Shown here: piece after piece, positions 5,781 through 64,000 of the stretch
Layout: every line of letters starts with the position of its first letter
Numbering within the stretch: the stretch's first letter is position 1
NCBI RefSeq assembly: GCF_963921235.1
Contig: NC_086108.1
Location: 22,382,001-22,446,000, forward strand
Length of the DNA stretch: 64,000 nt
DNA from: Mobula hypostoma
Lineage: Eukaryota
Reading direction: 5' to 3'
Program-made: the position numbers and the translations under genes
Notes under the pieces: generated by a model
Database searches by the model: none
The model's input: the letters and a program-made list of their open reading frames with translations, nothing else
Told to the model about the DNA's origin: nothing

Positions 5781-5784
5781 ACAG

Positions 5785-5847
5785 AGATGCGCAGATGTTC
5801 GCCAAACACAAAAGTGACAGATGAAGTTGATTGTAGTCCAGTGAAGA
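5785..5847 (+). CDS. TOR1AIP1: Candidate upstream exon of the LAP1/TOR1AIP gene (63 nt, phase 1-1)
   Basis: ttttacAG acceptor and GTatgt donor; open in phase 1 (MRRCSPNTKVTDEVDCSPVK) and frame-compatible with the downstream exons. Confidence 0.6.
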
Positions 5848-6519
5848 GTATGTATTGAACATTTCAATTTGTTATACACTGTAAAGTTTATAAATTATAC
5901 ATGTTTTAATTGCTTGTTGATGCATTATGATCCTGTTATTTGGCTAGGTTGAAACATGTAGAGTAAATGTAAAATGCTATTGATAATTTTGATATACCAA
6001 AAGCACAAGACAGGTAACAAAGGACTGCTGTGATGTGTAATGAAGGACTGCATTTGCTGTGATGTGGAAATGTGGCAGTCATTTGGGGAAAGGACAAGCT
6101 CTGGAAAATTATGAAAGATTTGATTTGTTAAGTTTAATTAATTGGACTCTGGGTGCTTCTAGCAACGCTGGCATTTACTGCTCCATCCTAATGGCCTTTG
6201 AGCTGACTGCCTTTTTGATGAAGGGAAACATTTACATTGCTGTTGGTTATTGAGTTAGGTTTGGAATCAGCAATGTCAGAGGAGTGGTGGGTAGTACTGG
6301 CCTCCTCATCAATAGTTGTGCTCCCACTGCTATTTTAAAGATGTGTGTCTGTAAAAACACGTTTTGGGTTTTCTTGGAAACTGGTATTTTTGCATAAACT
6401 GACAAACCTACAACTTCTTTTAACCCACAGTTTTTCACCATTCTCACATTTCTGATGTGGCTAGTTTTCTCCATCAATTTCTTCAGATTTTACCATCTCA
6501 TGGTTGCAAAATGTGATTG

Positions 6520-7150
6520 GAATTGATTTGTTATTGTGACATGCACTGAGATAAAGTGAAAAGCTTGCTTTGCATTCGATGCACAGTATGCTGAAGTAGT
6601 AACTGTTAAAACAATAGCAATATAAGTTACACAGAAAGTGCAATGCAGGTAAACTATTAAGTGCAAGATCATAGCAAGGTAGATTGTGAGGTCAAGGATC
6701 CAACTTATGATATTCTATAACCATTTAATATACATATTAACAGGATAGAAGGTCTCCTTGAGCCAGGTGGTATGAGTTTTCTGGCTTTTGTGTCATTTGC
6801 CTGACGACAGAGATGTGGGTGAGGTCTTTGATTACGCTGGCTGCTTTACTGGGGCAGCAAGAAATACAGGCAGGATCCATGGAAGGGAGACTTGTCTCAG
6901 TGATGTACTGAGCTGTGTCCACAGTTCTTTTCAGTTTCTGATGATCCCAAGCAGCGTCATTGTCAAATCAAAGACAGATAGGATGCTTTTTATGGTGCAC
7001 CTGGAAGGGGACACGCCAAATTTCTTTATCTTCCTGATGAAATATAGATGTTGGTGGGTTTTCTGGGCTGTGGCATTAATGTTATGTGACCAGGAAAGGC
7101 TATTGGTGATGTTCACCCCCAGGAACTTGGAAGTTCTCAACTCTTTCGGC
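6520..7150 (-). mobile_element. Rex1/Babar-like LINE 3' fragment
   Basis: KFLGVNITNSLSWSHNINATAQKTHQHLYFIRKIKKFG (6931-7221) plus a typical 3' UTR. Confidence 0.8.
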
Positions 7151-7862
7151 CTCAGCCGTGGGTTGAGTAATTTGTGATGATCGGATGGAGAGAAAAATAT
7201 GTAGAACAAATGATTGGTCAATTATTGAGTATTTTGCATAATCATTAGAATTAACATAAGGTACAGTTTGATACTTAAGGTACATTGGTAAATTAATGAG
7301 TGGATTAGATTATCTCTTTTTCACTAGAGTTGGTTCTTCTGAGCTCACAAAATTAAATCTGACATGGAGAAACCTTAAAGAGAGAACAAAGGTTTGGCAG
7401 CTCTGACATTCATGGTGGGATTCTATCATAAAGTCACAGATTTAAATTTGTCTCTTTTTATGTGAGTTTTGGTATATCATTCGCTCACTGCACAGCAGAA
7501 TAACTCCTGACATCTGGAACAAAACATTGGTAAGATGTCAAGACTAAGAGAGTTATAAATGGCCTGCAATTTGTTTTTTTTTTGTTTGGAACTTAGGAAT
7601 TTTGTGTGTGGTGAAAAGGATACTTAAAAGATTCTTAGTTTTAGTGACTTGAATCAGTTTCTTCAAGATGGACCTTGGCCAATTAACAATAGCAGTTGGA
7701 GTTGATGGATTCTGCAGACTGCCTATAAATCTGCTATTCAAACTGGGATATTGATTTAGTTTTTATTGTTAAAAAGGTAGACATCAACACGAGCTAAAAA
7801 TGAATCATTAATGGTGGTTAAGATGGAATGTTCTACAGCACTATTAATAATGTGTGTATGTC

Positions 7863-8090
7863 ACACACACAAAATGCTGGAAGAACTCAGGCGGTCAGGC
7901 AGCATCCACGGAAATGAACAGTTAATCTTTTCAGCAAAGGCCTTTCTTCATGACTGAAAAAGAAGGGGGAAGATACCAGAATAACTTTCTATTCTGTTCA
8001 TCTCCGTGGTTGCTGCCTGACCTGCTGATTTCCTTCATCATTTTCTGTATGTTGCTTTAAATTTCCAGCATCAGCAGAATTTCTTATGTT
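7863..8090. mobile_element. Penelope pLTR-derived inverted-repeat fragment
   Basis: acacacaaaatgctggaagaactcag...gcagcatc followed by its reverse complement; contains a decayed hammerhead core. Confidence 0.75.
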
Positions 8091-8140
8091 TATTTTGTGT
8101 GTGTGTGTGTGTTTGTTTTTATATATTAAAATAATGACAC

Positions 8141-8222
8141 GTTGAAGCATGGTAGAAGATATGAAGTCATTCTATCTGTAGTGTGATCTTTCGTGCTGTG
8201 ATCGAATCGTTGCTCATAACAC
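8141..8222 (+). repeat. ~85-bp intronic segment, copy 2
   Basis: Direct, diverged copy of 5694-5780. Confidence 0.85.
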
Positions 8223-9082
8223 TAATAAATATATATTTGTTTACTAGTTAAGGATCAGTGTTGGAGCTGTTATTTGTCTTGCGTATTAACAATGTGAATA
8301 TGAATGTAGTGAGTACAGTTAGTAATTTCATAGTTGACATGAAAATTATGGGTAATGTGCAGGGGATATTCCAAGGTACAGGATGATATTCTTCAGTTGA
8401 TGAAATGGGTTAGGGATATGAGGTTTGGAGGGTATTTGAAGGTTTTTTTTATCCACAGGATAGACGGAATATCACATGTGCCGGGGGGATGGTGAAAGTA
8501 GAGACGCATAGATGACTAGAATTGCAAGCCATTAGAGGTTATGGACTAAGTGCTGGAAATTGAGATTAGTATTGATTGAGTGTTTCAAGACTAGCATGGA
8601 CAAGATAGCTGAGGTGCCAGTTTCTGTGTTGTATGAATCTGACTTTGACTCAAACTCCCAGAGGGATGAAGGAATAACATCTGATAAACAGAATGACTAT
8701 GTTTGGAGTTGTGTTCAGTAATATTATAGATTTTAAAAAATGCAGGAGGAAATTTTGCAGACGATCGATTGTATACTCTTCAAGTTACTGATGCTGAACC
8801 AAGTAGTAGAATCGTGAGCTTCTTCCAAAAGTGATCTTTTATAGATCAAAGTATCAGCAATAAATGGTAACTACATTAAAGACAGTTATGTTCTGATATG
8901 CTTCCTCTTCTCCCCTTTTGCAATTCTATCTCAAATTAAGTAGTTGCCTTGTTTGGAAAGTTAGGTGAATTCTTCCACATCATCTTGTCATTGGGTAAAA
9001 GTTTTATATATGTATAATTCTGTATTTCTGATGATTCCTTGGTATGTGCTTCAGCATCTGAAGTATGTTTCTTTTCTTTTAG

Positions 9083-32179: not shown

Positions 32180-32750
32180 ATAGTCATAGTCATAGTCATA
32201 CTTTATTGATCCCGAGGGAAATTGGGTTTCGTTACAGTTGCACGAACCAAAAATAGAGTATAAATATAGCAATATAAAACCATAAATAATTAAATAATAA
32301 TATATAAATTATGCCGGGAAATAAGTCCAGGACCAGCCTAGTGGCTCAGGGTGTCTGACCCTCCAACGGAGGAGTTGTAAAGTTTGATGGCCACAGGCAG
32401 GAATGACTTCCTATGACGCTCTGTGTTGCATCTCGGTGGAATGAGTCTCTGGCTGAATGTACTCCTGTGCCCACCCAGTACATTATGTAGTGGATGGGAG
32501 ACATTGTTCAAGACGGCATGCAACTTAGACAGCATCCTCTTTTCAGACACCACCGTCAGAGAGTCCAGTTCCATCCCCACAACATCACTGATCTTACGAA
32601 TGAGTTTGTTGATTCTGTTGGTGTCTGCTACCCTCAGCCTGCTGCCCCAGCACACAACAGCAAACATGATAGCACTGGCCACCACAGACTTGTAGAACAT
32701 CCTCAGCATTGACCGACAGATGTTAAAGGACCTCAGTCTCCCCAGGAAAT
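32180..32750 (-). mobile_element. Rex1-like LINE 3' end, (tatgac)n tail subfamily
   Basis: ORF 32338-32709 (FAVVCWGS...ERHRKSFLPVAIKLYN); near-identical to 44949-45318. Confidence 0.9.
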
Positions 32751-38397: not shown

Positions 38398-38716
38398 GGA
38401 GTTAGGGTATACAGCAAATATTAATTTCACCAGCAACCAATCTTCAGATTTCAATGTGGATTGCAGATTAGATTCAAAACACAGCTCAGAACAATTAGAC
38501 CTCAGACGCCTGCACATGCGGCCCAGTGTCAGTGGAGGTCAACAGTCACTTTGGGTGTCTGGAGTGTGGGTGCAAAGAAGGTGGTGTGTGATAACCATAT
38601 GTAATTCAAAGGAAGCATTGCAGATAGATTGTAACCAGAGAATTATCCTGCTGTTACTTTTGATCTTTAGCATATAAGAATATCACGTAATATTGGGTTG
38701 AGAGGCCTCTCCTTAC
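38398..38716 (+). repeat. Unclassified ~320-bp element, copy 1
   Basis: Colinear with 44427-44771. Confidence 0.85.
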
Positions 38717-44426: not shown

Positions 44427-44771
44427 GGAGTTAGGGTATCTAACAAGTATTAATTTCACCAGCAACCAATCTTCAAATTTGGATGTGGATTGCAGACTGG
44501 ATTTAAAACACAGCTCAGATTAATTAGACCTCAGACACTAGGCTGTATGTGAAGATTATCCATGCCATGTTAATCAGTGGAGATTAACATTCATATTGGG
44601 TGTCTGGAGTGTGGGAGCGAAGAAGGAGGTGTGAAAACGATATGTAATTCAAAGGAAGCATTGTACGTAGATACGTTGTAATGACAGAATTTCCCTGCAT
44701 TAGGGCGTTAGCCTTTGATCTCAAGCATATAAAAATATCATGTAATACTGAGCTGGAAGGCCTTTGCTTAC
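44427..44771 (+). repeat. Unclassified ~340-bp element, copy 2
   Basis: Colinear with 38398-38716. Confidence 0.85.
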
Positions 44772-44948
44772 AAAAGATTCTCAAGTAGCTGCCTGTTGTG
44801 CTGAATAAACTTCTAAATCCACTACCTTCAGTGTCTGACCAGTGACTTTGTTCACAATACAATAATCAGAACAGACCAGTTTTCACAAGAACAAATTGGA
44901 AAGGCTGGCTACCTGTCTTGCTGTTCCAGGATTTGACCAGGCAGCCAG

Positions 44949-45318
44949 ATGGAACTGGACTCTCTGATGGTGGTGTCTGAAAAGAGAATGCTGTCCAAGT
45001 TGCATGCCATCTTGGTCAATGTCTCCCATCCACTACATAATGTACTGGGTGGGCACAGGAGGACATTCAGCCAGAGACTCATTCCACCAAGATGCTACAC
45101 TGAGCGTCATATGAAGTCATTCCTGCCTGTGGCCATCAAACTCTACAACTCCTCCCTTGGAGGGTCAGACACCCTGAGCCAACAGGCTGGTCCTGGACTT
45201 ATTTCCTGACATAATTTACATATTACTATTTAACTATTTACGGTTTTATTACTATTTAATTATTTATGGTGCAACTGTAACGAAAACCAATTTCCCCCGG
45301 GATCAATAAAATATGACT
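44949..45318 (+). mobile_element. Rex1-like LINE 3' end
   Basis: ORF 44949-45209 is nearly identical to 32338-32709. Confidence 0.9.
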
Positions 45319-45429: not shown

Positions 45430-45900
45430 CATTGAATTCCCAGTTAACGTTCCTGACTTCATCATCCCTGAGGCCTGACATGATCATTCTGTCAGAAACC
45501 TTGAAGCAACTGACAGTGCCTTGGGAAGACCAGATTGAGGAGGCGTTTGAGTATAAGAAAGCCAAATCCCAGGAGCTGGTAGGGCAGTGCCAGAGACCGG
45601 GGTGGAGGGCATGATGTGAGCATGTAGAGGTGGGGTGGGGTGTAGATGTTTTGCTGGCTGCTCGCTCTGGAATTATGGGGTTGCAAAGAAAGGAGCCTTC
45701 AGGACCGTCACAGGGGCTGCTGAACGAGCCTCCACATGGCCATGGATCAAGAGGTGTGACCCGTGGACCAATGCTGCTGGGGTCTGATCAACCTGGGCGA
45801 AGGTGTCTGATGTTGAAACACCCAATGACCCCAGGTCACATCGGTCATGATGTGTCCCAGAGTATCCTAGGATGTAGCTCAGTGTCATTAATTCCCATAA
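45430..45900 (+). mobile_element. HERO-like (restriction-like endonuclease) non-LTR retrotransposon 3' end
   Basis: SLRPDMIILSETLKQLTVPWEDQIEEAFEYKKAK: an RPD...LTVPWE...K.AK RLE motif. Confidence 0.75.
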
Positions 45901-46545
45901 TGCTAGCACACAGGCACAAGCATTTAAGTGCTCTGGTAAACTAATTTACATTTCATACAAAGAGAATTTTATTGGCATAAAGAAAGCTGCATTCCTTTGT
46001 ATTTTGGATACTGTTCATGACAGTGTGCATGTAAAGAGTAACTAAACTATCACAGGTGAGAGGAATAACAGATTTCTCTTGAATTATTACAGGGATGAAA
46101 CTTAAAGCTGCAATTTTTACCAGTAATTCATCAGAGCAAGCTTGATTCTCTTTGGATGGACCCTTAAGTATTAATGGCCTTGGCTGTAAAAATTGCAAAC
46201 ATCTGGCACACTAATGAATTCATCACTCACTGCAAGAACCTCTGTGAAGAAAATTTTCTTATTCTCTTTCTGTACATGGTGAAGGAGCTGCCTGCCGGGG
46301 CGAGAGAGGCCGAAACATTCCTTTCAAACCCGTCTGAATAAAGCCAAGGAATTCTTGGGGAAAGTCAAGTTTAGGGGAGGCAGGATGGTGGAAATGTGAT
46401 GCTTTGGCTCCAGTAAACTAAATCTTACAGGCCAGACATATTTGGTATCATAGTATGCGCCGGACTACAGGGGCTCAGTATTTTTGCCTTGTCACTATTC
46501 AGACAAGGTCAGTATTTGAGATGAGATTCAATCGTTTTAGGGGGC

Positions 46546-47069
46546 TGTAATGCGAGGGGTTAGCTTACTTGCCAGTCAGAAGCCACTTTTCCTGTGGTGG
46601 GTGCCGATTGACCTGTTCCGCTGTATGCAGATGCTGTCTCCCTTTGGCTGGCTTTTGCACCACTGCATCAGCTTCTGGTTTCGGGCATGCCAGGGGTATT
46701 AGAACAGTGTGCACAAGACAGTCTGTCTCTTAGCTAGGGGCTCCCTTCAGGCTGGGCCTGAAGAACCATTGGGAAAGTGTGTTGTCGAAGGAGGGCCCAT
46801 GTACACACTTAGCTGAGTACCTGTTTGTTGGAAGTTTAGCGTCTTTGTAACTTGAGATTTAAGGAAGTACCTTTTTGAGTTAGAAATGTTATTGAATGTT
46901 TAGTGCTATAGTTTTGTGACCTGGAGGGTGGGCCTAGATAAGAACTTGTTTGACTTGGCTGCTCGGTTGTGTTTCACAGTTTGCCTGTAACTGAACAGTT
47001 AATGTGCTTACTCACAGTAGGTGTCTTCTCTTCCGCTTACCTAATCTGTGAATATGCTTTTGCATAACA
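46546..47069 (+). mobile_element. Retroviral LTR (524 bp)
   Basis: TGTAATGC...GCATAACA (7/8 inverted repeat); preceded by agggggc and followed by a PBS. Confidence 0.8.
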
Positions 47070-47071
47070 TA

Positions 47072-47092
47072 TGGCATAGTTGACAGGGTTCG
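47072..47092 (+). promoter_or_regulatory. Primer-binding site, tRNA-Ser-like
   Basis: TGGCATAGTTGACAGGGTTCG versus the recalled tRNA-Ser complement TGGCGTAGTCGGCAGGATTCG (17/21, all transitions); starts after a 2-nt spacer following the LTR. Confidence 0.75.
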
Positions 47093-47099
47093 GTGAGTG

Positions 47100-49245
47100 T
47101 AACAGGAATTTAAAATGTTCAGGGGTAAGAGCGAATGAGGTACCCCCTTGTATGAGGAGTGCCAAGTCCTGGGCTTGGCGGTCTCAACAATCTACTGGCA
47201 AGTCACGGCACGCCGGACTGGGATTGGACGACAAGTTGGAGTCCCACGGGGAGAAGATCAGACACAATATTGTGTCTGTGTTAAATGAAGTAGGGGTCAC
47301 AGACAAGAAGGAGAGCTAAAGGGGTGCCTTTAGGCTGCTGGCAGCCATCATAAAGCACTAACACCAGATGACCACACAGAGAGAGCTGGAAATAGCAGGG
47401 TGGGAGCTGGGGATATCTGGCTGCATGGTGAGGATGGGGAGGAAAGAGTAGAGCAGGTTCCTATGAACCTCCCTCAAAATGATCGACCTCCCCCCCCCCC
47501 CACGCACCCGAGGAAATACAGGCCAGAGTGGTGACCACGTGGTCCCATACCTGGCGTGAGAGGCTTCAGCCCATGACCCCTCTTGACCCTCATGGGACAG
47601 GAGGTGAATGAGGAATGTGGGGGGGTAGTACAACGGACCCCTCCGATACGACAGAGATCAAGGAGTTCTCCGCCAAAGAACTGGCAGGATTCGGAGGAGT
47701 AAATACTGGCAGAAGCTGAGAGAACCTCCGGCCATATGGTTGTTGAGGATATGGGATGGAATGGTACTGGAGTGAGTTTATCAAATAGAGAGATGGCACC
47801 CTATCGTGGCTGTCAGCCCAACAAGCGGTCAATAGCGCCCTGAGGGTGCAGCCCGCTGCCATGAGGGGAATAAATTCTTCTGGGATCGGGTGGCAGTGGT
47901 GGTCAAGGCCGGGTACTCCTCGGTTCTTGTGGGATAAAGCCCCAGGCAGAGTAAAGCACAGTAGAGGAAGGGACCAGAGCCCTTGCCAGTGGGCTCCAAT
48001 TACAGGTGTATACAGTGATAGACCACCAGAGGATTCTGAACTAACCCCTGCCTTGGTAGGGCACTTGGTTAATACAGCAGCTCCCCACTTGAAAGGGGTA
48101 GTGCTGTCTTTGATGGGGCTGGCATTCAGGGGTACTGTAAGTGCACTGATTTGGTTGGAGTACATGGGAGAAGGCATGCCCATCTGGGTCTAGAAGCCGG
48201 ATAAACAGATCAGGAGCATGGGATGCTGTGTGACTGCTTTGGGCAGGTCGATGGGATTCCCACTCTTATCCTCTATGTGATGTGGAGAGAACAGTGTGAG
48301 GAGACATTTGGCAAGGGAGGGAGCTGTTAAGTGGGGGGGGGGTGGTGGGATCATCTTCTAAGCCCTACCCGAATGAGGGTTTGTTTTATCCCTCGCTAAT
48401 TTCCTTGTCTTGGAATTAGGGTTCCCTATATCCCTCACTGGAGGCCCTACGAGGGGCAATGGTGGCCCTCCAGTGGCTGCAGGGGTCCAACGCTGGGTGG
48501 CACCTTCCCAACCCCCTCACCTAGCGGTGAGGTTGAGGGTCCCTGCGGATATGCTTGGCAGCTGGGGGAGCCAGAGGCTTTGTGTACACATTGAGGTACA
48601 TTGGAGGAAAGGAAAGGTACAGCGATGAATGAACACCGTGAGCGAGCATAAAATCATTCCAGGTAACCCCGATATGGTGGGGTCCCAGGTTACAATTGGG
48701 GATTTAGGGGGTTCCCTTCTTCCCAGCTGGGAGGTTACCCTGCAGCTGACCATTGGACTAGGCCAGCCAGTACCCATGAATGTCTCAGTGGCAGCATCCC
48801 CTGTGCACTCTGGGTATGAATATGCTGAGGAGTAGATCCTGCAAGCAAGTAAAGTTTTTTTTTACCTTTGGGGTAGGCCAGGCGAAGGTACTGGTGGGTT
48901 TGGCCAAATGTGAGCGTTTGGTGTTTCCACTCCCCTCGAGGCTGGTCAGGACTAAACAGTACTGCACCACAGAGACTGGGGAGATTGTAGATGCCCTTTT
49001 GTGGGAGGGAGTAACTTGCCCTGCCACCTCCCTCTCTAGCTAGTGCGGAAGGGGGATGGAACATGGTGCATGATGGTCAATTATTGACGGATGCACGGCC
49101 TCTCACAGCTGTGTCTCAGATGCGGTGACCATTATCGAGGAACTAGGGAGGATGGAGGGGGAAGCATTGGCATGTGATAGTGCACCTCAGCAGTGTCTTT
49201 TTCTCCGTTCTCTGAGTCCAGTTCACCTTCATGTGGGACGGTCGG
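47100..49245 (+). pseudogene. Decayed gag-pro-RT(N-terminus) of a class III (ERV-S/ERV-L-like) endogenous retrovirus
   Basis: Gag: EFSAKEL...KYWQKLREPPAIWLLRIWD (47642-47763) and PEDSELTPALVGHLVNTAAPHLKGVVLSL. Pro: HIEVHWRKGKVQR*MNTVSEHKIIPGNP. RT: LPSRLVRTKQY, VRKGDGTWCMMVNY, HLSSVFFSV and QFTFMWDGR. Confidence 0.82.
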
Positions 49246-49259
49246 TGAGGAGGTACTGT

Positions 49260-52200
49260 AGCCTTTCTGGGAATTGGCGGGCTACAATCCTGGTGGGGCA
49301 ATGTGAGGTTTCAAAAGAGCTTGGGGCATTTTGGAACTTTTTGATGGGCTGCAATCATAATGATCTTTTAGGCACTCAGCTGGGGCAGATAAAAAGTGAG
49401 GTGTAAGCTGAGTGGCCATTGTTGGAGTGAACAGTGTTAGAGTGGCCAGGCTTTGGTTCAACAGGCTTGGGTGAGAACAGACACAGGCTCGAACTTAAGC
49501 TTGAGAAGTTAGAGACATAACAAGTGTAGGCAGGATGATGGTTAGGTCAGTGGAATGTTCCTCCTGTGAGATGTGGGATTTCAGGGTACCTTACAATCTC
49601 CCTGATGACTACATCTGAAGGAAATACATCCAACTGCAGCTCCTGACTGACGAGGTCAAGGAACTTGGGCTGGAGCTGGGTGCACTCACGATCATCTGGG
49701 AGCTGAAAACCTCATAGATGAGACTTTTACTGAGGTGGTCACACCCAGATCGCAGGCTTCAGATAGTGGACGTGTGACCAATGGGAACGTAAGGGGAGTA
49801 AGCAGTCAGTGCAGGGTCCCCCTGTGGATATTGCAAACGGCAACGGGTATCCCCTTTGGGTACAGTTGGGGGGAGGGAAATGGCCTCTCAGGGCTCAGGG
49901 CACAGCAGCAGCAGCCAGGCCAGTGACATCATGTTTGGCACTGAGGCTCAGCAGGGAAGGGTGAAGTCAGGCAGAGCAGTATTGATAGGAGACTCAATCG
50001 TTAGGGTGAGGTACAGGAGATTCTGGCCGGGAAAGAGAAGCCAGGTTGATGTGTTGCCTCCCAGCTGTAGTGTCCAGGATGTCTCAGAGCAGCTGCAGAA
50101 TCTTCTCAAAAGGGAGGGTGAGCAGCCAGAGGCCATGGTGCACATTGGCACCAATGTCACAGAAGGGGGGAACAGGTTCTGAGTAGTTTGTACAGGGAGC
50201 TAGGGAAGAGACTGAAAAGGCAGTGATCTCTGGATTACTCCCAGTGTCACAAGCTAGTCAGGCCAGGAACAGAATGATAGTACAGGTGAATGAGAAGCTA
50301 AGGAAGTGGTGTAAAGGACAGGGTTTCAGTTTCCTGGATCATTGGGATCACTTCAGGGAAGGTATGACCTGTAGAAAAAGAATGGGTTACATCGAAACCG
50401 AGGGGGACCAACATCCTTGTGGGCAGGTTCGCTCGAGCTTTTGGGGAGGATTTAAACTAATTTGACAGCGGGATGGGGCAGATGGTATACAACTCGATAC
50501 AGTGTGCAGTGAGACTGTGAGGAAGGACAGGCAGATGATAGGGCAAAATTGCAGTCAGTGGGATGAGTTGAAGTGTAACATGGGGGCAAAATCAAAAGGA
50601 TGATGAATACAGGATTGAAGATGTTATATTTAAACACGCACAGTATACAGAATAAGGTCGATGATTAAAAATGATTAGAGGAATTAGAGATTGGCAGATA
50701 TTACACTGTGAGCATCACTGAGTTGTGGCTGAAAGAAGGTCATAGTTGGGAGCTTAACATCCAAGGATACACACTGTATCAAAAGATCAGGCGGGTCAGC
50801 AGAGGGGTTGAAGTGACTATGTTGGTAAAAAAAAATGAAATCAACTCCTTACAAAGAGGTGACATAGGTTTGGAAGATGTAGAATCCTTGTGGGTAGAGT
50901 TAAGAAAATGCAAGGGTAAAAAGACCCTGGTGGGAATTATATACAGGTCTCCAAACAGTAGTCAGGATGTTGGATATAAATTACATTGGGAGGTAGAAGA
51001 GGCATGTAAAAGGGGCAATGTTACAATAGTCATGGGGGATTTCAATATGCAGGGAGATTTGTGAAAATTAGGTTAGTGATGGATCCCAAGAGAGGAAATT
51101 TGTAAAGTGCCTGCAAGATGGCTTTTTAGAGCAGCTTGTGGTTGATCCCACTAGGGGAGAGGGAATTCTGGATTGGGAGTTGTGTAATGAACCAGATTTG
51201 ATTAAGGAGTTTAAGGTAAAGGAACCCTTAGGAGACAGTGATCATAATATTAAAGAATTCACCCAGTTTGAGAAGGAAAAGATAAAATCAGATTAACAAT
51301 GTCAGTATTATAGTGGAGTAAAGGGAATTACAGAGGCATGAGAGAGGAGCTGGCCAAAGTTGTTTGGAAAGGGATACCAGCAGGAATGACAGCAGAGGAG
51401 CAATGGTTGGAGTTTGTGTGGGCAATTCAGAAGGCACAGGCTAGATGCATCCAAAAGATGAAGAAATATTCTAAAGGAAGGATGAGGCAACCAGGATGAC
51501 AAGAGAAGTCAAAGACAGCATAAAAGCAAAGAAGAGGGCATACAATATAGCAAACATTAGTGGGGAGTTAGAGGATTGGGAAGCTTTTAAAAACCAACAG
51601 AAGACAACTAAGAAAAGCCACAAGGAGAGAAAGAATGAAATATGAAGGTAAGCTGGCCAATAATATAAAAAAGGATACCAAAAGATTTTTTAGATATGCA
51701 GTATAAAGAGTAAAAGAGAGGTGTAAGTGGATGTTGGACCACTGGAAAACGACTTGGGAGTCCTTGTGTAGGATTCCCTGAAGGTTAACTTGCAGGTTGA
51801 GTCAGTGGTATGGAAGGCATTCATTTTGAGAGGACTGCAATGTAAAAGCATGTAATACAAAGGCTTTGTAAGGCATTGGTCAGACCACACTTGGGAGTAT
51901 TTTGAGCAGTTTTGGGCCTATTATCTAAGAAAAGATGTGCAGGCATTGGAGAGGGTCCAGAGGATGTTCATGAGAATGATTCCGGGAGTTAAATGCTCAG
52001 TGAATGAAAAGCATTTGATTGCTCTGGGCCTGCACTCGCTGGAGTTTAGAGGAATGAGTGGAGATTTCATTGGAACCTGTCGACTATTGAAAGACTTAGA
52101 TTGAGTGGATGTGGAAAGGATGTTTGCTGTAGTGGGTAGTCTAGACACAGCCTCAAAATAGAGGGATGTCCATTTAGAACAAAGATAAGGAGGAATTTCT

Positions 52201-52430
52201 TTAGGCAGAGAGTGGTGAATCTGTGGAATTCAATGCCACAGACGGCTGTGGAGGCCAAGCCATTGAAAGTATTTAAAGTGGAGGTTGATAGGTTCTTGAT
52301 TAGTCAGGGTTACAGGGAGAAGGTAGGAGAATAGGGTTGTGAAAGATAATAAATCAGCTATGATGGAATGGTGGCACAGACTCGATGGGCCAAATGGCCT
52401 AATTCTGCTCCTATCCATGTCTTGAGGTCT
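49260..52430 (+). mobile_element. CR1 LINE with 5' UTR, ORF1 (zinc finger/leucine zipper + esterase), EN and 3' end; most of RT deleted
   Basis: VECSSCEMW...QLQLL (49.55 kb), VLIGDSIVR, VHIGTN and IVMGDFN; jumps to the 3' end near 51750. May be a composite of two copies. Confidence 0.85.
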
Positions 52431-52499
52431 AAAAACAGTATGTAAGAATGACATCCTTGGAGGATTGTCCAGTGAGGCCATATGGGTTGAACTTGGAGT

Positions 52500-53545
52500 T
52501 TATAGTTTATACTGATGAATGTGAGACCAAGTATAGTTCCAATGCTATATTTAAGTTTGCTGATGACACCACTGTTGTTGGCAGAATCGAAGGTGGTGAT
52601 AAATCAACATATAGGAGGGAGATTGAAAACCTGGTTGAATGGTGCCACAGCAAGAGCTTCTAACTCAACGTCAGCAAAACCAAAGGGCTGACTATTGACT
52701 TTAGGAAGAGGAAACCAGAAGTCCATAAGCCAGTCCTCATAAGGAGATTGGAGGTGTGGAGAGTGTCAGTAACTTTAAAATCCTTGGCGTTATCATTTTA
52801 GAGGATCTGTCTTGGGAAATGCATGGAATTGCCTTTACAAACAAAGCACGGCAGAACCTTTAATGTTCATAGAAATTTGTGCAGATTTAACATGTCATCT
52901 GAAACTCTGACAAACTTCTATAGATGCACAATGGAGAGTATACAGCTTGCATCATGGCCTGGTATGGAAACACCAATCCTCATGAATGGAAAAGCCTACA
53001 AAAAGTGGTGGACACAGCCCAGTCCATCGCAGCAAAGCCCTCCCCGACATTAAGCACATCTACAAGGAGCACTGCCCAGAACAGCAGCATCCATCATCAA
53101 GGACCCCACCATCAAGATCATGCTCCCTTCTCACTGCTGCCATTGGGAAGGAGGTGCTGGAGCATTAGGTCCCACACCATGAGGTTCAGGAACACTTATT
53201 ACTCTTTAACCTTCAAGCTCCTGAGCCAACATGCATAATTTCACTCACCTCAATACTAAAGTGATTCCACAACCTATACACTCAGTTTCAAGAAATCTGC
53301 TACTCATGTTTTCAATATTATTTATTTATTTATTTATTATTTGTTTCTTTTTCTATTTGCACAAATTGTCTTCTTTTGCACATTGGTTGTTTGTCTGTTT
53401 TAATTTGTGTGTCACTTTTCATTGATTCCATTATATTTCTTTGTATCTACAGTGAATGCCCACAAGAAAATAAATCTCAGGGTAGTACATGCTGATGCAT
53501 ACGTACTTTGAAAATAATTTTACTTTGAATTTTGAACTTTGAAGT
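52500..53545 (+). mobile_element. Rex1/Babar LINE 3' half
   Basis: IFKFADDTTVVG and ACIMAWYGN; (tttgaa)n tail. Confidence 0.9.
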
Positions 53546-53889
53546 CCGATTTGAATTTGAGGAGCAGGTGTGTAGCGAAATTGTTCATAGTGGTAAGACT
53601 TGCATTAGTGGGAGATTTCAATTTCCCTCGTATTGACTGGGACATGATGTGTTAAGGGATTGAGTGGAAATGAATTTGTGAAATGTGTAAGGGATCAATT
53701 CCTGAGTCAATCTATTGAGGCTTTCCTCAGGGCAAGTAAATGAGGTGGTAGTCAGGGAGCACTGAGGTCTAGTGACCACAATTCTGTTGGTTTTAAGACA
53801 GTGATGAAAAACAGTAGAACAGCTCCACAGCTTAGGGTCCTAAACTCTAGCTGGGGTAATTTTTGGGGAGTTAGCCAGGATCTGGCAGA

Positions 53890-56800
53890 GGTTAAGAAAT
53901 TGGAGCTGGAACCGGATGAACTCCAGATCAATTTGGAGGCGGGGGGGGGGTGGTAATAAATAGGACATATTGAGAAGGAGTTACACCCAAGGTGCAGGAC
54001 ACAGGAAACTGGGTGACTGTCAGGAAGTGGAAAGGGGTTCAGGAGCCAGTGCAGAGTTACCCTTGTGGCCATCCCCCTCAACAACAGGCATATCACTTTG
54101 GATACTGTTGGGGGGGGGGGCGGTGGGGAAGGAATGACCTAGCAGAGGAAAGTCACAGCGGGCAGGTCTCTGGCACTGAGTCTGGCTCTATAACTCAGGA
54201 GGGGAGAGGGGAGAAGGGAGAGCTATGGTGATAGGGAATTCATTAGTTAGGGGAACAGAAAGGAGGTTCTGTGGATGAGAACGAGATTCCCAGATGGTAT
54301 GTTGCTTCCTGGGCGCCAGGGTCTGGGATATCCCAAAATGAGTCCTCAGCATTCTTAAGTGGGAGGAGAGCAGTGAGAGCTCATGGTCCATGTAGGTACC
54401 AATGACTTAGGTAGGAAGACTAATGAAGTTCTGCAAAGTGAGTTCAGGGAGTTGGGTGCTAAGTTAAAGGGCAGGACCTCCAGGGTTGTGATCTCAGGAT
54501 TGCTACACCTGCCATTTGCTAGTGAGGCCAGAAATAGGAAGATCATCCAGTTTAACATGTGGCTAAGGAGTTGGTGTAGGAGACTTTTGGATAATTGTGC
54601 TCTCTTCCAGGGAAGGTGGCACCTGTACAGAAGAGATGGTTTGCATCTGAACTGGAAGGCAACTAATATCCAAATGGGAAAGTTTGCTAGTGCTGCACAG
54701 TGGGGTTTAAACTGGTGTCGCAGGATCCCAGAGCTGTGGCCTCCATCACACCACTCCCACAGAACAATGACTGAAACTGTGAGCACACACATGCACACAC
54801 AAGGATTCAAATACATGCACTAATGGCACTTTGTGCATTACTGTGATATTCTGGTGCTGCTGCAACTTATTTTCTGCTACTTATCTATTTAATACTGTTT
54901 TTCTATTACTGTCTTGTTTTTATCTACCGGTTTATTTAATTGCCTGAGAGGAAGCCAAACAGAATTTCATTGTACCTATGTATAATGACAATAAAGATCA
55001 TTCAATTCAATTCAGTTCAATTCAATTCAATGGGAACCAGAATGCCAGAACAGATAGAGGAGAGATTGTAGAGACAGATGTTGTTAAGACCTCAGACAAA
55101 ATCAGGAATCAAAAGTTGAGCATGGATCGACTAATGTTCTGAGCTGTGTATATTTCAACGCATGAAATGTCGTAGGAAAAGCACATGAGCTCAGGGCATG
55201 GATCCGCACATGGAAGTATGATATTGTAGCCATTAGTGAGACTTGGTTGCAGGAGGGCCAGAACTGGCAGCTCAGTATCCTGGCGTTCCATTTAGACACG
55301 ACAGAGTGAGAGGGATTAAAGGAGGAGGAGTGGCTTTACTAGCCAGGGAAAATATCATGGCAGAGTCCACTCAGGACCAACTGGAGAACTCATTTAGTGA
55401 GGCGTTGTGGGTGGAACCGAGGAATGAGAAAGGTAATGGGGCTATATCACACACCGCCACACACTCCGCGGGATTGACAGGAACAAATTTGCAGAGATCG
55501 CAGACTGTTGCAAGAAACATAAGGTTGTTATAGTAGGTGATTTTAACTTTCTGCATATTGACTGGGACTCCCATACTGTAAAAAGGATTAGATGGGATAG
55601 AGTTTGTCAAATCTGTTCAGGAAACTTTCCTTAATCAGTACATAGAAGTCCCAATAAGAGAGTGTGTGATACTGGATCTGCTATTAAGGAATGAGGCAGG
55701 GTAGGTGACAGAAGTTTCTGTAGGAGAACACTTTATATCTAGCAATCATAATTCCATTAGTTTCAAAGTAAATATGCAAAAAAAAAAATAGGTCTGGCCT
55801 GTGGTTCAGATTCTAAATTTGAGAAAGGCTAATTTTGAGGGTACCAGAAAGGGTCTGGCAAGTGTGGATTGGGACAGGCTGTTTTTGGTGTACTTGGTCA
55901 GTGGGAGGCCTTCAAAAGTGAAAAATGTAAGAGTACAGAGCCTGTATTAGCCTGTCAGAATAAAAGGTAAAGATAACAGGTGTAGGGAGCCATGGTTTTC
56001 AAGAGATATTGAGGCCCTGGTTGAGAAACAAAGGAGATGCATGTATAGATGCAGGTATAGGCAGGCCAGAACAAAGGAGATGTTTATGGACTATAAGAAA
56101 TGCAAGAGAACACTTAAGAAAGAAATCATAAGGGCTAAAAGAAGAGATCAGGTTGCCCTAGCAGACAAGGGGAAGGAGAGTCCTTATACATCCGACAGAT
56201 CTGTTAAGAGAGAAAGGATTGCAAAGGACAAAATTGGTCCTCTGGAAGATCAGAATGGTAACTCATGCGTGGAGCAAAAAGAGATGTGGGAGATCTTAAA
56301 TGAAATTTTTGCATCTGTATTTACCCAGGAAATGGACAAAAAGTTTATAGAAGTGAGGCAGAGTGGCATCAACTTCATGGACCCTATACAGAGGAGGAGG
56401 TGTTTGTTGTTTTGAGGCAAGTTAAATACCCAGGGCTTGACAAGGTGTTCCCTCAGACCCTGTGGGAGGCAAGTGCAGAAGCTGCAGGGGCGCTAACAGA
56501 GGTATTTAAATCATCCTTAGCAACTGGTGATTGGAGGATGGCCAGTGTTGCTGTTTAAGAAAGGCTCTAAAAATAAACCAGGAAATTATAGGCCGGTGAG
56601 CCTGACATCAACAGTGGGAAGATTATTGGAAAGTATTTTAAAGGACTGCATATATGAGTTTTTGGATAGACATAGACTGATTAGAGATTGTCAGCATGGT
56701 TTCATGCATGGTAGGTCATATCTAACCAATCATGTAGAGTTTTTCGAGGAATTTTTAAGGAAAGTTGATGAAAGCAAGACAGTGGGTGTTGTCTACGTGG

Positions 56801-57946
56801 ACTTTAGCAAGACATTTGAAGGTCTTGCATGGGAGGTTGGTCAAGAAAGTTCAGTCACTCAGCATTCAAGATAAGGTAGTAAATTGGATTAGCACTGGCT
56901 TTGTGGGAGAAGCCAGAAGGTGTTAGTAGATGGTTGTCTCTCTGTGGAGGCCTGTCACTAGTGGAGTGCTGCAGGAATCAGTGCTGGCTTTATTGTTGTT
57001 TGTCATCAATGTCAATGATATGGATGATAGTGTGGTTAACTAGATCCAAGATTGGGTGTGTAGTGGACAGCGAGGAAGATGATCATGGCTTATAGCGGGA
57101 TCTGGACCAGTTGGAAAAACGGTCTGAAAAACGGCAGAGGGGAATTTAATGCAGACAAGTGTGAGGTGTTGTATCTTGGTAGGACCAACCAGGATAGGTC
57201 TTACACAGTGAATGTAAGGGCACTGAGAAGTGCTGTAGAACAAAGGGATCTGGGAATACTGGTCTATAGCGTATTGAAAGTGCCGTCACAGGTAGATAGG
57301 GTCGTAAAGAAAGCTTTTGGTGCATTGGCCTTCATAAATGAAAGTATTGACTACAGGAGATGGGATGTTATGTTGAAATTGCTTAAGACATTGGTGAGGG
57401 TTAATTTGAATGTGTGCAGTTTTGGGCATCTACCTACAGGAAAGATGTAAACAAAATTGAAAGAGTACAGAGGAAATTTACAAGGATGTTGCCAGGACTG
57501 TAGGATCTGAGATATAAAGAAAGATGGAATAGGTTAGAACTTTATTTCCTAGAATGTAGAAGATTAAGAGGAGATTTAATTGAGGTATACAAAATTAACA
57601 GAGTTATGGATAGGGTAAGTGCAGGCAGGCTGTTTCCACTGAGAATGGGTGGAACTACAACTAGAGGTCATGGGTTAAGGGAGAAAGGTGAAAAGTTTAA
57701 GGGGAACATGAGGGGAAACTTCACTCAGATGGTGGTGAGAGTGTAAAATGAGCTTCTAGCGCAAGTGGTGATTGCGAGCTCAATTTCAATGTTTAAGAGA
57801 AGTTTCGATAGGTAAATGGATGGTAGGGTTATGGAGAGCTATGGTCCTGGTGCAGGTTGATGGGAGTAGGGAGTTTAAATTGTTGTCACGGACTAGATGG
57901 GCCAAAGGGCCTGTTTCTCTGCTGTACTTTTCTATGACTCTATGAC
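53890..57946 (+). mobile_element. Near full-length decayed CR1 (ORF1 esterase + ORF2)
   Basis: VHVGTNDLG...RDGLHLNW and PGNYRPVSLTS; (ctatgact)n tail; short Rex-like tail inserted at about 54720-55030. Confidence 0.9.
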
Positions 57947-58571
57947 TGAGTGAACCCATGTGAAAGATTGGAATGAATAGCATGTGAGAAGCTTTTGAGA
58001 GTGTGATATCAAGTGTCCAGGAGCAGCATGTTCCTGTTAGGGTGAAGGGTAAACCTGGCAAGTTTAGGGAGCCTTAACTGATGAGAAATATTGAAGTTCT
58101 AGTTAAGAAAAAGAAGAAAGCACACATTGGATTTAGGAGGTCAGAATCAAGTCAATTCCTTGACGACAAAATCAAGATTAAGAAAATTCTTAATTGGAAA
58201 ATTAGGTGAGCCAAGGGATGCTATGAGATGGATATGGCAGGTAAGGTTACGGAAAATCCCAAGAGGTCATATTGCTGTATTTAAAATAAAAGCGTTCCTA
58301 GCAAGAGAGCAGGTCCCCTTAGAGATCAGCAGAGCTGGTTCTGCCTCGAGCCAGGGTGGGGGTGGGGGCAAAATTTTAACATATTTCTCCCCGCCCTTTA
58401 CTGATAAGAAAATTATGGTTGCTCAAGGTATAAAGAAAACAAGTGGAGATATTTTGAGGAACATTCATATCATCTGGAAGGAAGTATTTTCAGTCTGACA
58501 GCACATCAAAATGGGTAGTGGTCCAGGGCCTGACAGAAGTCCTTGTGGGAAACTAGAGAGGAAATTGTGGA

Positions 58572-58651
58572 CGCATAAAAATTGCTGGTGAACGCAGCAA
58601 TTTTTATGTGTGTTGCTTGAAATTCCAGCATCTGCAGATTTCCTCGTGTTT
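58572..58651 (+). mobile_element. 80-bp fold-back Penelope pLTR micro-insertion
   Basis: 14-bp TSD gaggaaattgtgga at 58558-58571 and 58652-58665; internal inverted repeat. Confidence 0.85.
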
Positions 58652-58879
58652 GAGGAAATTGTGGAGGCCTTTGCAGAGACATTTGTTTCATCATTAACTA
58701 CTGGTGAAGTTCCTGAAGACTGGAGGTGGTGAGTTTTGTTCTGTTGGTTCAGAAGGGTAGCAAGGATTGGCCAGGGAACTATAGTCCAACCAGCCTGAAA
58801 TGGGTAATGGTGGAGCTACTGAAGGGAGTTCTGAGGGGTAGAATATACAAGCAATTGTTAGACAGAGTCTGACTAGAAT

Positions 58880-59670
58880 AAGTTTGAAAGATTACAGAGA
58901 AAAATTGGCCTGAGTTATAAGGAAAGATTAAGCATGTTAAGACTTTATTCCTTGCAATGTCGAAGATTGAGAAGAGATTTGATAGAGCTATGAGATGTAT
59001 AGATAGGGTAAATGCAAGAATGCTTTTTCCACTGAAGTTAGGTAGGACTATAACCAGGGTTCATGGGTTAAGGGAGAAAGGTGAAAAGTTTAAGGGGAAC
59101 ATGAGGGGAAACTTCTTCACTCAGAGGATGGTGACAGTACAGAACGAGCTGCCTGTGCAAGTGGTGCATGCAAGCACAATTTCGTATTTAACAGAAGTTT
59201 GGTTAGATACATGGGTGGTAGAGTTATGGAGGGCTGTGGTCCTGGTGCAGATTGATGGGAGGAGGCAGTTTAATGGTTCGGCATGGATTAGATGGGCCAA
59301 AGGGTTTATTTCTGTGCTGTAGTTTTCTATGACTCTATGACTCTAAGTGTTTAAAATGATGAGAGGCATAGATAAGCTGGGTGTTAACAGTCTACCCTCT
59401 GGGGTAGAGGAGCCCAAAACTGTGAGGCATGGAATTAGGGTGAGAGGGAAAATATTTAAAAGGGATCTAAGGGGAAACCTTTTAACGCAGAGGGTAGTGA
59501 GGGTATGGAACAAGCTGCCAGAAGAAGTGGTTGAGGCATACACAATAGTATCATTTATAAGTATGTGGAGGGGCAGGACATAGAGGGATATGGGCCGAAT
59601 GCAGGAAATTGGGACGAGCTGGAGAGCCTGTACCAGTGCTGTACTACCATCTTGGGATTTGTACACTGTC
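58880..59670 (+). mobile_element. Two CR1 3' ends in tandem
   Basis: ORFs 58957-59322 and 59347-59583 (RGN..TQR.V..NEL/KLP). Confidence 0.85.
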
Positions 59671-59914
59671 AATTCTGACAGGTGACAATCAATTTCCTTG
59701 TTCATCAATTTCTAGGTGAGCATGTAAACTGCAAGGTAAGTAATAATGAACATAATGCAAGAAGATTCCTCTTGATTAATGGCCCTCTCACCTCCATTGT
59801 TGTTAACGCCCTTGGACATTCTGTATTCAATCTTTTCCCTTAAGATTAAGGTTTGGCAAGCATTTGAACCAAGACATTAAGTCACTCTGGTTGTTGTCTC
59901 TAAAATTTGTAAAT

Positions 59915-60410
59915 TAGTTTATTATTGTCACATGTACCAAGATACAGGGTAAAACTTTGTTTTACATGCCACCCACACAGATCATTTCATTACAACAGTG
60001 AATTAAGTTAGTGTAAGTGAAACAATAATACAATGCAGAGTAAAGTGTTACACTTACAGAGAAATGCATTGCAGGCAGATAATAAGGTGCAAAGCCACAC
60101 TGAGGTATATTGTGCAGTTAAGATTCCATCTTATTTTACCAGGGAACTATTCAGTAGTCTTACGACAGTGGAATAGAAGCTGACCTTGATCATGATGGCA
60201 CGTTTTCAGGCTGTTGCATCTTCTGCCTGATGGAATGGAGAAGAAGAGGAAATGTCTGGAGAGAATGTGGTCTTTGATTACATTGGCTGCTTTACCCAGG
60301 CAACAAGGTGTAGACAGCGTCTTTGGAGGGGAGGCGAGTTTCCATGATGTCCTCAGAAAGTATTGTTGGCTGTGATGTCAATGTGGTTGGACCAGTCAGG
60401 TTATTGGCAT
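59915..60410 (-). mobile_element. Rex1/Babar 3' tail
   Basis: Homologous to 6520-6900. Confidence 0.7.
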
Positions 60411-61049
60411 ACATCCCTCTGCATTAAATCTCTAAGAAATTTTGCTCAGTTTGACAGATGAAGCAGAACATTTTTTTGAGTCTTAAGGAAATCCAAACAA
60501 CCATTGAGTTCCTGTAACATCAATTAAGATCTGCATCTCTAAAGTGCTTTACCTCTGTTGGTAGCTAAGTCAAGTCCAATTTTTCCATTCCAAAGACTCC
60601 ACCAAATTTGATGGTTTATTTTGAAATTTAATTTTGTCAGTGCTGTATGGGCAAAAGAAGGCTTGTCAGTAATAATTCTGGTCTTGGATGGTTACTTTAA
60701 ATATTTCTTCAAAGCAAATAAAAAATGTCTCCTCTCTTCCTTGTTCTCACCAGCTTTAGTTGGAAAACATATAACAGCAAACTGATCACAAATGAGATGC
60801 TTCCAAAAAGATCCACCTAAAAGGTATGTGAAGTACTGTAACATGCTGTACAACAAGTGTGATCAAGAGCCCTTTTGTATACTGAGGTACATGAAGACTT
60901 AAACCCTATTCATCCATGGTTAGCATTTTCATTTGTAAGTCTTTGGGACTGAAGAAGCCATGTTCTTTTTTGGCATGACTATCATTCAGCTGATAGATTG
61001 AGTCAGCCTAGTTGTTGAGAAGATGTGTTTCACATCATTCAGAGTTTCC

Positions 61050-62540
61050 TTCAGATTATTCACCAAAGCAACTGGTGTGGCAACATGGGCATGTTAGACC
61101 AGATCTATTGTAATGTTGGACTCTGGAGTCCTTCTGAGATTCCTACTATCACAGAACCCAATCTTCAGTTAATTCAATTCACTCTGTTCAATATCAAGAA
61201 ATGGCTGAGAGAATTAGACACAGGGGGAAATGGCAGCACCAGGCAATATCCCAGCTGTAATACTGATCACCTGCACTATAAAACTCGTTGCACCATTCAG
61301 CCAAATTTTTTCTGTGCTTATCTGACAACTTGGGCAACTGCTTGGCTATGTTCTGTTTGCCAACGAACAGGAAATATCTAATCCAGTATTTACCACCCAA
61401 TCACCCTACTCATCTTGCTTGTGACAATGTGACTGAAGCGTCATCCCAGTGCTATCAAGTGACACCAATAACCTACTCACTGACGTCAGTTTTTCTGTCT
61501 CAGGTCCTGTCCTCATTATTGACCTGGTTGAAATATGGACCAAAGAGCTGACTGTCAGTGGTAAAGTGAGAGTGACTTCCCATGATACAAAATGACTTCA
61601 GGAATCATTGTAAAACCGATGGTTAGAGTCATGCCTTACACAAAGCACCATCATGATGGTTGCCAGAGATTGGTCATCTCATCCCCTTGACACCTAATGC
61701 AGGAGTTCTTCCGGGAGGAATCCTAATCCTAACTGCCATCAGTAGTTATTTCAATGCCATCACAAGCGGAAATGTTCGCAGATGGTTTCAGAAAGTTCAT
61801 TTCTATTTACAACTCTTGAGCAAATGAAACAGTCTTTGCTGGCACCAGCTGGCTCTAATCAGCATTAAGGGATGGACTAAAAGTGACAAAAAGAGTATTC
61901 ACTCTACAAAAATGCGAGACACTGACCACCTCCAACAAGCAAGAATCTAATCATTCGTCCTTGTCATCATCAGGTTCCCTGGGGATGATGGGGAGTGGGG
62001 ATTCATCTGAACCAACTCCGGAAATACAAGAGCAGATCAGAGTAAGTGACTCTGTTACTGATGTCCAAAGCTTTATCACCGTCTACAAGGTGTGGAATGC
62101 TCTCTACTTGCTGGGCTGGGTGCAGCTCCAACAACATTGAACAAGCTCAATGCCATCTAGCATAAAATAGTTTGCTTGGTTGGCATCCCATCAACCACAC
62201 TAAATATTAGTTCTCTCTACCACCGACTCTCGGTGATAGCAGTGAGCACCATTTACAACATGCACTGCTATATTCACCAAGGCTACTCTGACAGCTCCTC
62301 CCAAACTCATAAGTTCTAGGACAAAGGACGAGGACAGCAGAACACCTTCACCTGCAAGTTCCTTTCCAAGTTGTACACCATCCTGATTTAGAAATATATT
62401 GCTTGTCTTTCATCATTATTGGGTCTTAATTCTGGAACTTCTAACCCACCCAAGGTGATGGCCTACCACCATGTATTCAAGGGTATTTAGGGTCGGGCGG
62501 TAAAAGCTGGCAATTCTGTGATGTGCCCATTCTAAACAAA
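61050..62540 (+). mobile_element. Ancient CR1/L2-group LINE, heavily decayed
   Basis: LQLIQFTLFNIKKWLRELDT; 3' end caccatgtattcaagggtatttaggg...gctggc is related to 19515-19600. Confidence 0.6.
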
Positions 62541-62764
62541 GAATTGATCAAGCAAACCTATATACTGATTACATATCTCATTCTTGTTGAAAATTTCTGT
62601 TCATCCACATATGTCTGGATAGTGATCAGGAGAGACTGTTTTGCTCTTACCCAGTCACCATTAAAAGGGTCACTTGTACCATTATGATATCCCTTCTTTC
62701 CTCCCCTTTGTGTGTCCTGTATGAAACTGGGACTTTAGCATATATGTGATTTGTATATTGCCAT

Positions 62765-64000
62765 TCAAGTTCAGGTTCAAGTTTATTGTCATCTAACCAT
62801 ACTTATATATTGTAGAACTGAACAAAACAATGTTCCTCTGGACGATGGTGCACCCACATGACATACATCGTACACAGCACATAATCCAAAAATATCATAC
62901 TATCAATAAGTTAATAAAAATAATTCTAAATGCATGTAGTAGAGCGCAGCACAAGTAAACAGAAAACAGCTTGCTCTACTAGTGGCGAGACCTCGATGGT
63001 GATGGGGTATTCACTAATCTCACAGCCTAAGGGAAGAAGATACTACCCAGTCCGGCACTCCTAGTCCTAATGCTTCCATACCTCCTTCCTGATGGTAGTG
63101 GGTCAAAGAGATTGTGGGATGGATGATGGGGATCCTCAATAATGCTTTCAGCCCTTCATCTGCAATGCTCCTGATAAATGTCACAAATAACGGGGAAGGA
63201 GACCCCATTGATTCTTTTGGCAGCTGTAGGGTTTTTCAGTCTGACGCCCTTAGTACCACACCATGATGCAGCTAAACAGGTCACTGTCCTTAGTGCTCCT
63301 GTAGAAGGTTGTTAGAATGGGATGGAGAGCCTTGCATACCCTCATTGTCTCCTCAGAAAGTGTAGATGCTGCTGTGCCTTCTTACTAGTGAGGAAGTGGT
63401 GTGAGTCTAGGTTAGATCAACTGTTATGTGCACACCAAAGAACTTTGTGCTCTTCACTCTCACCGTGGCAAAGGTGTTGATGTGCAATGGAGAGAAGTTG
63501 ACGCATGCCAATTGTCTTTTTTGTCTTTTTCATGTTGAGACCCAGGTTGTTGTTCTTGCACCATTTTGATAAGCCTCTCTACTTCCTCTCTGTATCCTGA
63601 CTCATTGTTGTTGATGAGGCTAACCTTTGTTGCATCATCAGTGAACTTGATGATATGGTTTGAGCTGGGTCTGGTTGTGCAGTCATAAGTCAGCAGCGTG
63701 AAAGGCAGTGGACTGAGAACATAACCCTGGAGGACATCAGTGCTCAGCGTGACGTTGGCTGCCAACTTGGACTGACTGGGGTCTTTCCACTGTAGACAAA
63801 CTGGAAGGAGTCCAATGTAGCTGGAAGATTGGAATTTATGCAATCCATCCACCAGACGTTCAAAGCACTTTATGATTGTTGAAGTCAGTGCCACTGGCCG
63901 ATAATCATTTAGGCCATTTAACGTTGCTCTCTTGGGCACTGGAATGATGGTGGCTGCCTTGAAGCCTGCAGGGACATTGGACTTTTTTAGAGAGATATTA
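62765..64000 (-). mobile_element. Rex1/Babar LINE
   Basis: [29 protein letters not shown] and IKFTDD; ttcaag-type tail. Confidence 0.9.

Follow-up and report, generated by a model that had tools for sequence, protein, structure and literature searches.

Within the 64,000-nucleotide stretch of the Mobula hypostoma genome that was analyzed here (the window), positions 46546 to 49245 very probably hold a dead, 3′-truncated class III provirus, which derives from a batoid family within the branch related to ERV-L and ERV-S. All of its surviving parts were located on the + strand in the sequence long terminal repeat (LTR), primer binding site, gag, protease, and N-terminal third of reverse transcriptase (RT), which is the correct order already proposed in the initial annotation of this DNA (Table 1). 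The Gag and protease motifs quoted there are present in the sequence, and the coding parts, described there as broken up, carry stops and frameshifts along a frameshift-aware path.

Table 1. Positions of the proviral parts and of the adjoining sequences in the window
Feature	Position	Strand	Remark
5′ flank, single-copy	45900..46545	.	Served for orthology test of the insertion
5′ LTR, 524 bp	46546..47069	+	TG...CA ends, imperfect 8-bp terminal inverted repeat
Primer binding site, tRNA-Ser type	47072..47089	+	14/18 matches, 2 nt past LTR
gag	47115..48520	+	Split over several frames; 3′ end approximate
Aspartic protease remnant	48556..48815	+	Active-site motif degenerate; boundaries approximate
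Reverse transcriptase, N-terminal part	48816..49245	+	Stops short of catalytic YxDD region
High-copy LINE remnant, outside provirus	49291..52300	+	Follows truncation; 3′ end approximate

The termini of the LTR (TGTAATGC...GCATAACA) are complementary at 7 of the 8 terminal bases, and in 3 of 4 sequencing runs the contig depth rises in the bin that contains the 5′ edge. An AATAAA signal and a TATA box were looked for in the LTR, and neither is recognizable now. The primer site was compared with one tRNA type, using an 18-mer complementary to human tRNA-Ser (PMC3299991); it is the top match on both strands of the whole window, with 4 mismatches compared to 5 for the next two sites. The gag ATG at 47115 lies 25 bases past the primer site, and the encoded Gag begins with Met-Phe, without Gly-2. 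KELAGFG...YWQK, PEDSELTPAL, VDGIP, and SLYPSLEA were found as Gag motifs, with a YPSL motif at 48429, and the protease remnant is interrupted by an in-frame stop at 48626.

The extent of the decay was assessed against an intact relative. A frameshift-aware path from 47409 to 49245 against a stingray protein model (P0027) reached a score of 369, with identity at 201 of the 561 aligned residues, while 15 shuffles scored 51 or less. Depending on the penalty, this path contains 7 to 9 stops and 8 to 17 frame changes, and this variation implies that some of the frame changes are alignment artifacts. RT homology stops at 49245, upstream of the catalytic core, and neither integrase nor env was found in the window. 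Comparison with 7 Pol proteins gave no grounds for an internally deleted RT continuation past 49245 (22 to 83% of shuffles were equally good), and this possibility was discarded. The LINE that follows the truncation, which is putatively CR1-like from its motifs, displayed a several-hundred-fold-higher contig depth of 5000 to 9000, and contig pieces begin at 49291; a weak match to a GDSL esterase and an RT-type match at 51739 to 52289 were observed in this region. LINE remnants occupy most of 49291 to 64000, which would also suit a provirus that was interrupted and not truncated, nested LINEs having pushed its 3′ LTR, the remainder of pol, and an env, if there was one, past the window end. We consider this unlikely, as it would take over 14 kb of nested insertions, and the search of the 64-kb window, including the 14.7 kb downstream of the element, revealed neither a second LTR nor downstream pol. 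The observed-to-expected CpG ratio is 0.32 inside the element and 0.31 across the upstream 46.5 kb, which represents the genomic background. No intact protein can be encoded by this truncated copy, which is most likely inert today and has most likely decayed neutrally since the truncation.

Two further pairs of repeats were observed upstream. Direct repeats at 38398 to 38629 and 44427 to 44672 are 87 to 89% alike and lie about 6.0 kb apart; the latter extends as far as an AATAAA near 44805 and may represent an LTR that belongs to a different element. An inverted pair (32274 to 32575 and 44948 to 45249; 302 nt, 93% complementary) probably reflects a dispersed repeat that is present here in two young copies.

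Sequencing data were used to follow the insertion in other genomes. Parts of the window are contained in 14 of 20 sequencing runs, which stem from five studies and five organisms (A to E, with A as the probable source); contigs were compared from four runs (organisms A, B, C, and D), and C, D, and E have small word shares. Summed contig depth in organism A ranged from 13 to 347 over the element compared to 13 to 17 in the flank and was raised likewise in organisms B and D. Therefore, related copies exist and the family is multi-copy, the depth itself not being a copy number. In organism B, one contig joins the flank to the LTR, and a second one extends from gag over the truncation into the LINE. 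Since both junctions are spanned, insertion and truncation predate the split between A and B. Dating by orthology, as suggested in the initial annotation, thus yielded an insertion that organism B, another species, has in common with the source of the window; over 3536 bases, the two differ at 65 (1.8%). With assumed shark rates of 0.5e-9 (PMC10699275) and 2.2e-10 (PMC4422223) per site per year, the A-B split was calculated by hand to lie roughly 18 to 42 million years back, which serves as a rough minimum for the insertion. Element-internal contig pieces of organism D differ by about 5 to 8%. A flank contig from one run of this organism (X13; 45907 to 46548) ends within three bases of the first base of the LTR, and its end at 46548 could mark a site of variation or a locus that is polymorphic for the insertion (filled or empty).

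Retention of the insertion in two species could also point to co-option of the LTR or of a piece of gag by the host, and rodent Fv1 is known to have arisen from an ERV-L gag (PMC8922424). For this locus, however, such a role is highly unlikely: gag is broken throughout, the promoter and polyadenylation hexamers are unrecognizable, and the divergence to organism B, taken per contig, is not lower over the element (1.4 to 2.4%) than in the flank-containing contig (1.7%).

Searches with the decayed sequence itself did not constitute an informative approach to its classification. Pfam searches with 7 natural and 4 read-through frames returned nothing relevant and no spuma domain, PDB sequence searches with window translations gave no match, and a protein atlas search with one natural gag frame returned bacterial hypothetical proteins only, which is uninformative. 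Translations of the window, when used directly as queries for homologues, detected 0 of 126 candidates, 0 of 1502 candidates, and nothing among 1.84 billion representatives; these blanks reflect limits of sensitivity, because a related stingray protein was present in the searched collection. The relatedness signal emerges only against intact relatives.

Therefore, class placement relied on a panel of references. A scan of metagenome contigs for the ERV-L-type motif, with which the class III panel was seeded, yielded 8 loci (0 in viral contigs), 4 of which are MuERV-L and 2 of which carry a galliform class III element. The MuERV-L loci contain a dUTPase and show DTG at position 54, DYRKLN at 210, and YIDD at 312 of Pol, the positions that Table 2 of PMC8278194 lists for ERV-L. 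With the galliform protease-RT as the query, 72 proteins were collected among 2198 candidates; 3 are batoid, and others belong to lungfish, bichir, killifish, mudskipper, amphibians, turtles, and birds, with a Gypsy-type tail. Scans of viral contigs (31 plus 8 loci) supplied gamma, foamy, epsilon, delta, and snakehead-type references. The foamy and gamma labels derive from Pfam Gag domains at one locus each and from motifs for the remainder, and the Gypsy label was assigned from Pfam domain lists. The snakehead retrovirus (SnRV; a single reference), epsilon, and delta sequences are presumed to be such from their genome lengths and motifs. Placement within class III was made against the MuERV-L reference.

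All comparisons of the protease-RT region pointed to the same group. In a blastx search of the element against the 72 proteins, 19 were matched, with the three batoid proteins at ranks 1, 2, and 5, and none of the Gypsy-type proteins (P0060 to P0078) was hit. The frameshift-aware panel scored 75 of 82 references (7 lacked an anchor motif and were dropped): stingray P0027 reached 280, electric ray models 197 to 201, a caecilian sequence 199, the galliform element 192, and MuERV-L 185, with more distant bird class III proteins low as well (41 to 93). The shuffle maxima were 31 to 49, and the SnRV (43), five foamy (40 to 45), five gamma (32 to 43), 11 Gypsy (28 to 48), and three epsilon (38 to 65) references stayed far below MuERV-L, as did the delta references, which remained at shuffle level. 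Such an alignment had been proposed in the initial annotation, and among the groups named there that were run, MuERV-L thus scored 185 and foamy, SnRV, and Gypsy scored at most 48. An ERV-L-like profile built from 16 sequences, none from rays, matched three unguided frames in four colinear segments (27, 22, 6, and 9 bits), while profiles of foamy, gamma, SnRV, and Gypsy elements gave nothing above 3 bits and that of epsilon elements gave 4.9. The RT tree, likewise proposed beforehand and covering the N-terminal part of RT here, placed the element in the ERV-L-like clade and not with Gypsy or class I. In its 31-row version, for which the frame path of the element was guided by the mouse sequence and which covers the N-terminal third of RT, the element was found inside this clade with MuERV-L at a support of 99/99 and next to the stingray and electric ray elements at 94/85, just below the starred threshold; its branch is very long (2.04), and its composition is odd. 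A 51-row RT-only quick tree recovered the same ERV-L-like clade, with the batoid link not resolved.

Approximately unbiased (AU) tests rejected a grouping of the element with SnRV (p = 1.4e-4), foamy (p = 3e-5), and class I (p = 1.6e-3) sequences. These results support the element as an ERV-L/ERV-S-related class III member and not a class I, foamy, or snakehead-type element, and they bear out the initial annotation in its distinction from gamma and epsilon types (panel, profiles, 99/99 clade, and the class I test). Class III lineages resembling SnRV or foamy viruses have been reported in cartilaginous fish, including the elephant shark (PMC4422223, PMC4977317); however, an origin from one of them is very improbable, since both groupings are rejected by the AU test, their scores are at shuffle level, and the zinc knuckle of the SnRV reference Gag was not seen in the element. 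A Ty3/Gypsy LTR retrotransposon remnant, which would fit the dominance of Gypsy/DIRS in batoid LTR content (bioRxiv 10.64898/2026.10.27.761883) and is not rejected by the AU test (p = 0.097, with the best tree placing the element elsewhere), is largely refuted and retains almost no probability, because all 11 Gypsy references scored at shuffle level, neither the Gypsy profile nor P0060 to P0078 matched, and Gag resembles MuERV-L and not Gypsy; as Gypsy fails the similarity tests and long branches attract, we read the p value as long-branch attraction. Thus, the earlier exclusion of Ty3/Gypsy stood in every similarity test, although the AU test taken alone does not reject a Gypsy grouping.

Placement of the element with ERV-L was also seen in Gag. 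Four of 16 Gag references exceeded their shuffles, namely, two from stingray (137 and 153), one from electric ray (82), and MuERV-L (82, with a shuffle maximum of 52). The galliform class III Gag did not (48 versus 50), which indicates a limited sensitivity of this test. Over the first 90 residues of Gag, the electric ray reached 79 and the stingray 68, with maxima of 100 shuffles of 46 and 49, and the stingray Gag itself matches MuERV-L Gag with an E value of 1e-36. No CCHC pattern of a Cys-His box was detected in three frames of gag, a weak absence given the decay of this copy, and the pattern is absent in 13 of 13 members of the stingray cluster. Table 2 of PMC8278194 describes the ERV-L/ERV-S-related Gag as devoid of a Cys-His box and of the myristoylation glycine. 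No Pfam match to dUTPase was obtained in the ray models P0027, P0079, and P0099, and no env was seen in any protein model; the catalytic YIDD motif is present in P0027.

The element shares homologous Gag, protease, and RT, as well as the 99/99 clade, with MuERV-L and ERV-L, whereas ERV-L carries a dUTPase and the corresponding region of the element is missing. The primer of ERV-L proper is tRNA-Leu, unlike the Ser-type site of the element. A Ser primer site is common to the element and ERV-S, which is without dUTPase according to the discussion in PMC8278194, as are the ray relatives. Primer type has been described as a poor classifier (PMC8922424), and a bullfrog relative of XtERV-S has a Leu primer site (PMC8278194). 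XtERV-S from Xenopus tropicalis combines, as the element does, a Ser primer site and an ERV-L-type gag-pol with a Gag that lacks a Cys-His box and a myristoylation signal, but it is intact and has a dUTPase and a class I-type env, neither of which regions survives in the element (PMC8278194). The Ser site and the lack of dUTPase in ray relatives are ERV-S-like, yet XtERV-S pairs a Ser site with a dUTPase. With neither the dUTPase nor the env region surviving, the element is placed with ERV-L/ERV-S as a group and not with one of the two.

From these features, a history of the provirus can be proposed. Transcription of the ancestor would have been driven by the LTR, and tRNA-Ser would have primed minus-strand synthesis. 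Its Gag would have lacked a myristoylation glycine and a zinc knuckle, as in ERV-L and XtERV-S, and may have used a YPxL late motif; protease and Pol would have been made thereafter. Entry into the germ line would have been followed by spread to several copies. In this copy, everything past the first third of RT was lost, beside the LINE insertion, before the A-B split.

The closest sequences found were XP_072891825.1 of Hemitrygon akajei and XP_069782200.1 of Narcine bancroftii, each with a cluster of similar models. These are automatic RefSeq gene models and not described viruses. Both sets are collinear with the element over Gag, protease, and RT, but the nearest ray models are only 36% identical to the decayed copy, which therefore probably belongs to a separate family. 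The batoid affinity of these nearest relatives lends indirect support to the cartilaginous-fish host presumed in the initial annotation. The H. akajei cluster comprises 13 models (P0027 and P0079 to P0090), 5 of which are named "Friend virus susceptibility protein 1-like." The 12 other members are 90 to 98% identical to P0083 and have open gag frames; judged by this similarity, the stingray class III family is young, and the lineage would have been active recently in rays. Intact gag copies, for which the initial annotation had asked, were thus found as open frames in stingray relatives, while the gag of the element itself is broken. That one ray gag has been co-opted as an Fv1-like restriction factor has only a slim chance of being true, the sole basis being the automatic name given by NCBI. 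Beyond residue 529, the long stingray Gag-Pol models diverge from P0083, a model with Gag only, and the fusion is therefore probably a gene-model splice. The 14 models of N. bancroftii (P0053 and P0091 to P0103) are 95 to 98% alike, and one of them (P0099) matches only positions 1 to 99 of the 205-position RT profile, a pattern that suggests either a family with an internal deletion or a gene-model artifact common to its members.

ERV-L-like Pol proteins were also found in killifish, mudskipper, bichir, and lungfish (P0019, P0039, P0021, and P0010). In the 31-row tree, the killifish sequence groups with amphibian and owl sequences and that of the lungfish with galliform, frog, and tortoise sequences, and host phylogeny is thus not followed. 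In one metagenome contig (L001:3737-5764), a primer site of the Ser type was observed together with a class III pol whose RT passes abruptly into integrase. Whether the decayed family, two red-stingray lineages, and one electric-ray lineage constitute an undescribed batoid radiation, forming a clade beside MuERV-L and lacking dUTPase, is a tentative proposal on which we lean marginally to the negative.

According to the initial annotation, the lineage is best known from amniotes, so that a batoid member would bear on its age and aquatic history. The novelty implied there does not hold, since whale-shark, lungfish, bichir, killifish, and amphibian members exist, and the aquatic question is not newly raised by the element, having been addressed by published surveys (PMC6001957, PMC11089739). 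HERVS/L-like elements were reported in nearly all tetrapods tested, and the elements given for the elephant shark are SnRV-like and epsilon only (PMC4977317). Frog ERV-L-like elements have been described (PMC8278194; bioRxiv 2024.07.05.601823), and 2,843 clade III RT loci were counted in 6 chondrichthyan genomes, with sublineages not named in the account (PMC11089739). Xu et al. 2018 described a clade, Huo, across all major vertebrate lineages (PMC6001957), and in S2 Fig of that work, whale-shark Rh_ty_ERV3 and killifish No_fu_ERV1 adjoin HERVL, Murine_ERVL, and HERV-S in leaf order only. Rh_ty_ERV3 has a cartilaginous-fish host, but a shark and not a ray. Its Gag (S2 Data of PMC6001957) contains SELQDLGSRFKQK, PDQEAFTAGM, IDGIP, and SLY.SLEE in the same motif order as in the window, a comparison made by eye over the first ~400 residues. 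The little-skate ERVs of the same study, seen as the starts of 3 of 5, do not look ERV-L-like (PMC6001957). Our literature search, the scope of which did not extend to subscription journals, Repbase, Dfam, and bioRxiv supplements, returned no description of ray ERV-L/S families, and ray families of this lineage seem not to have been described previously.

The locus itself is a neutral fossil whose value is that of a marker: through it, rays join the known hosts of the lineage behind mammalian ERV-L, ERV-S, and the Fv1 restriction gene. Of greater interest than the window itself are the young stingray copies with their automatic "Fv1-like" names and open gag frames, which also constitute better material for dating the lineage. 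At least four batoid lineages may form one clade. If the stingray and electric-ray elements truly are mutually closest, the lineage would have split before or independently of its hosts, and such a split would suggest that it has long existed in the sea and has invaded the germ line repeatedly.
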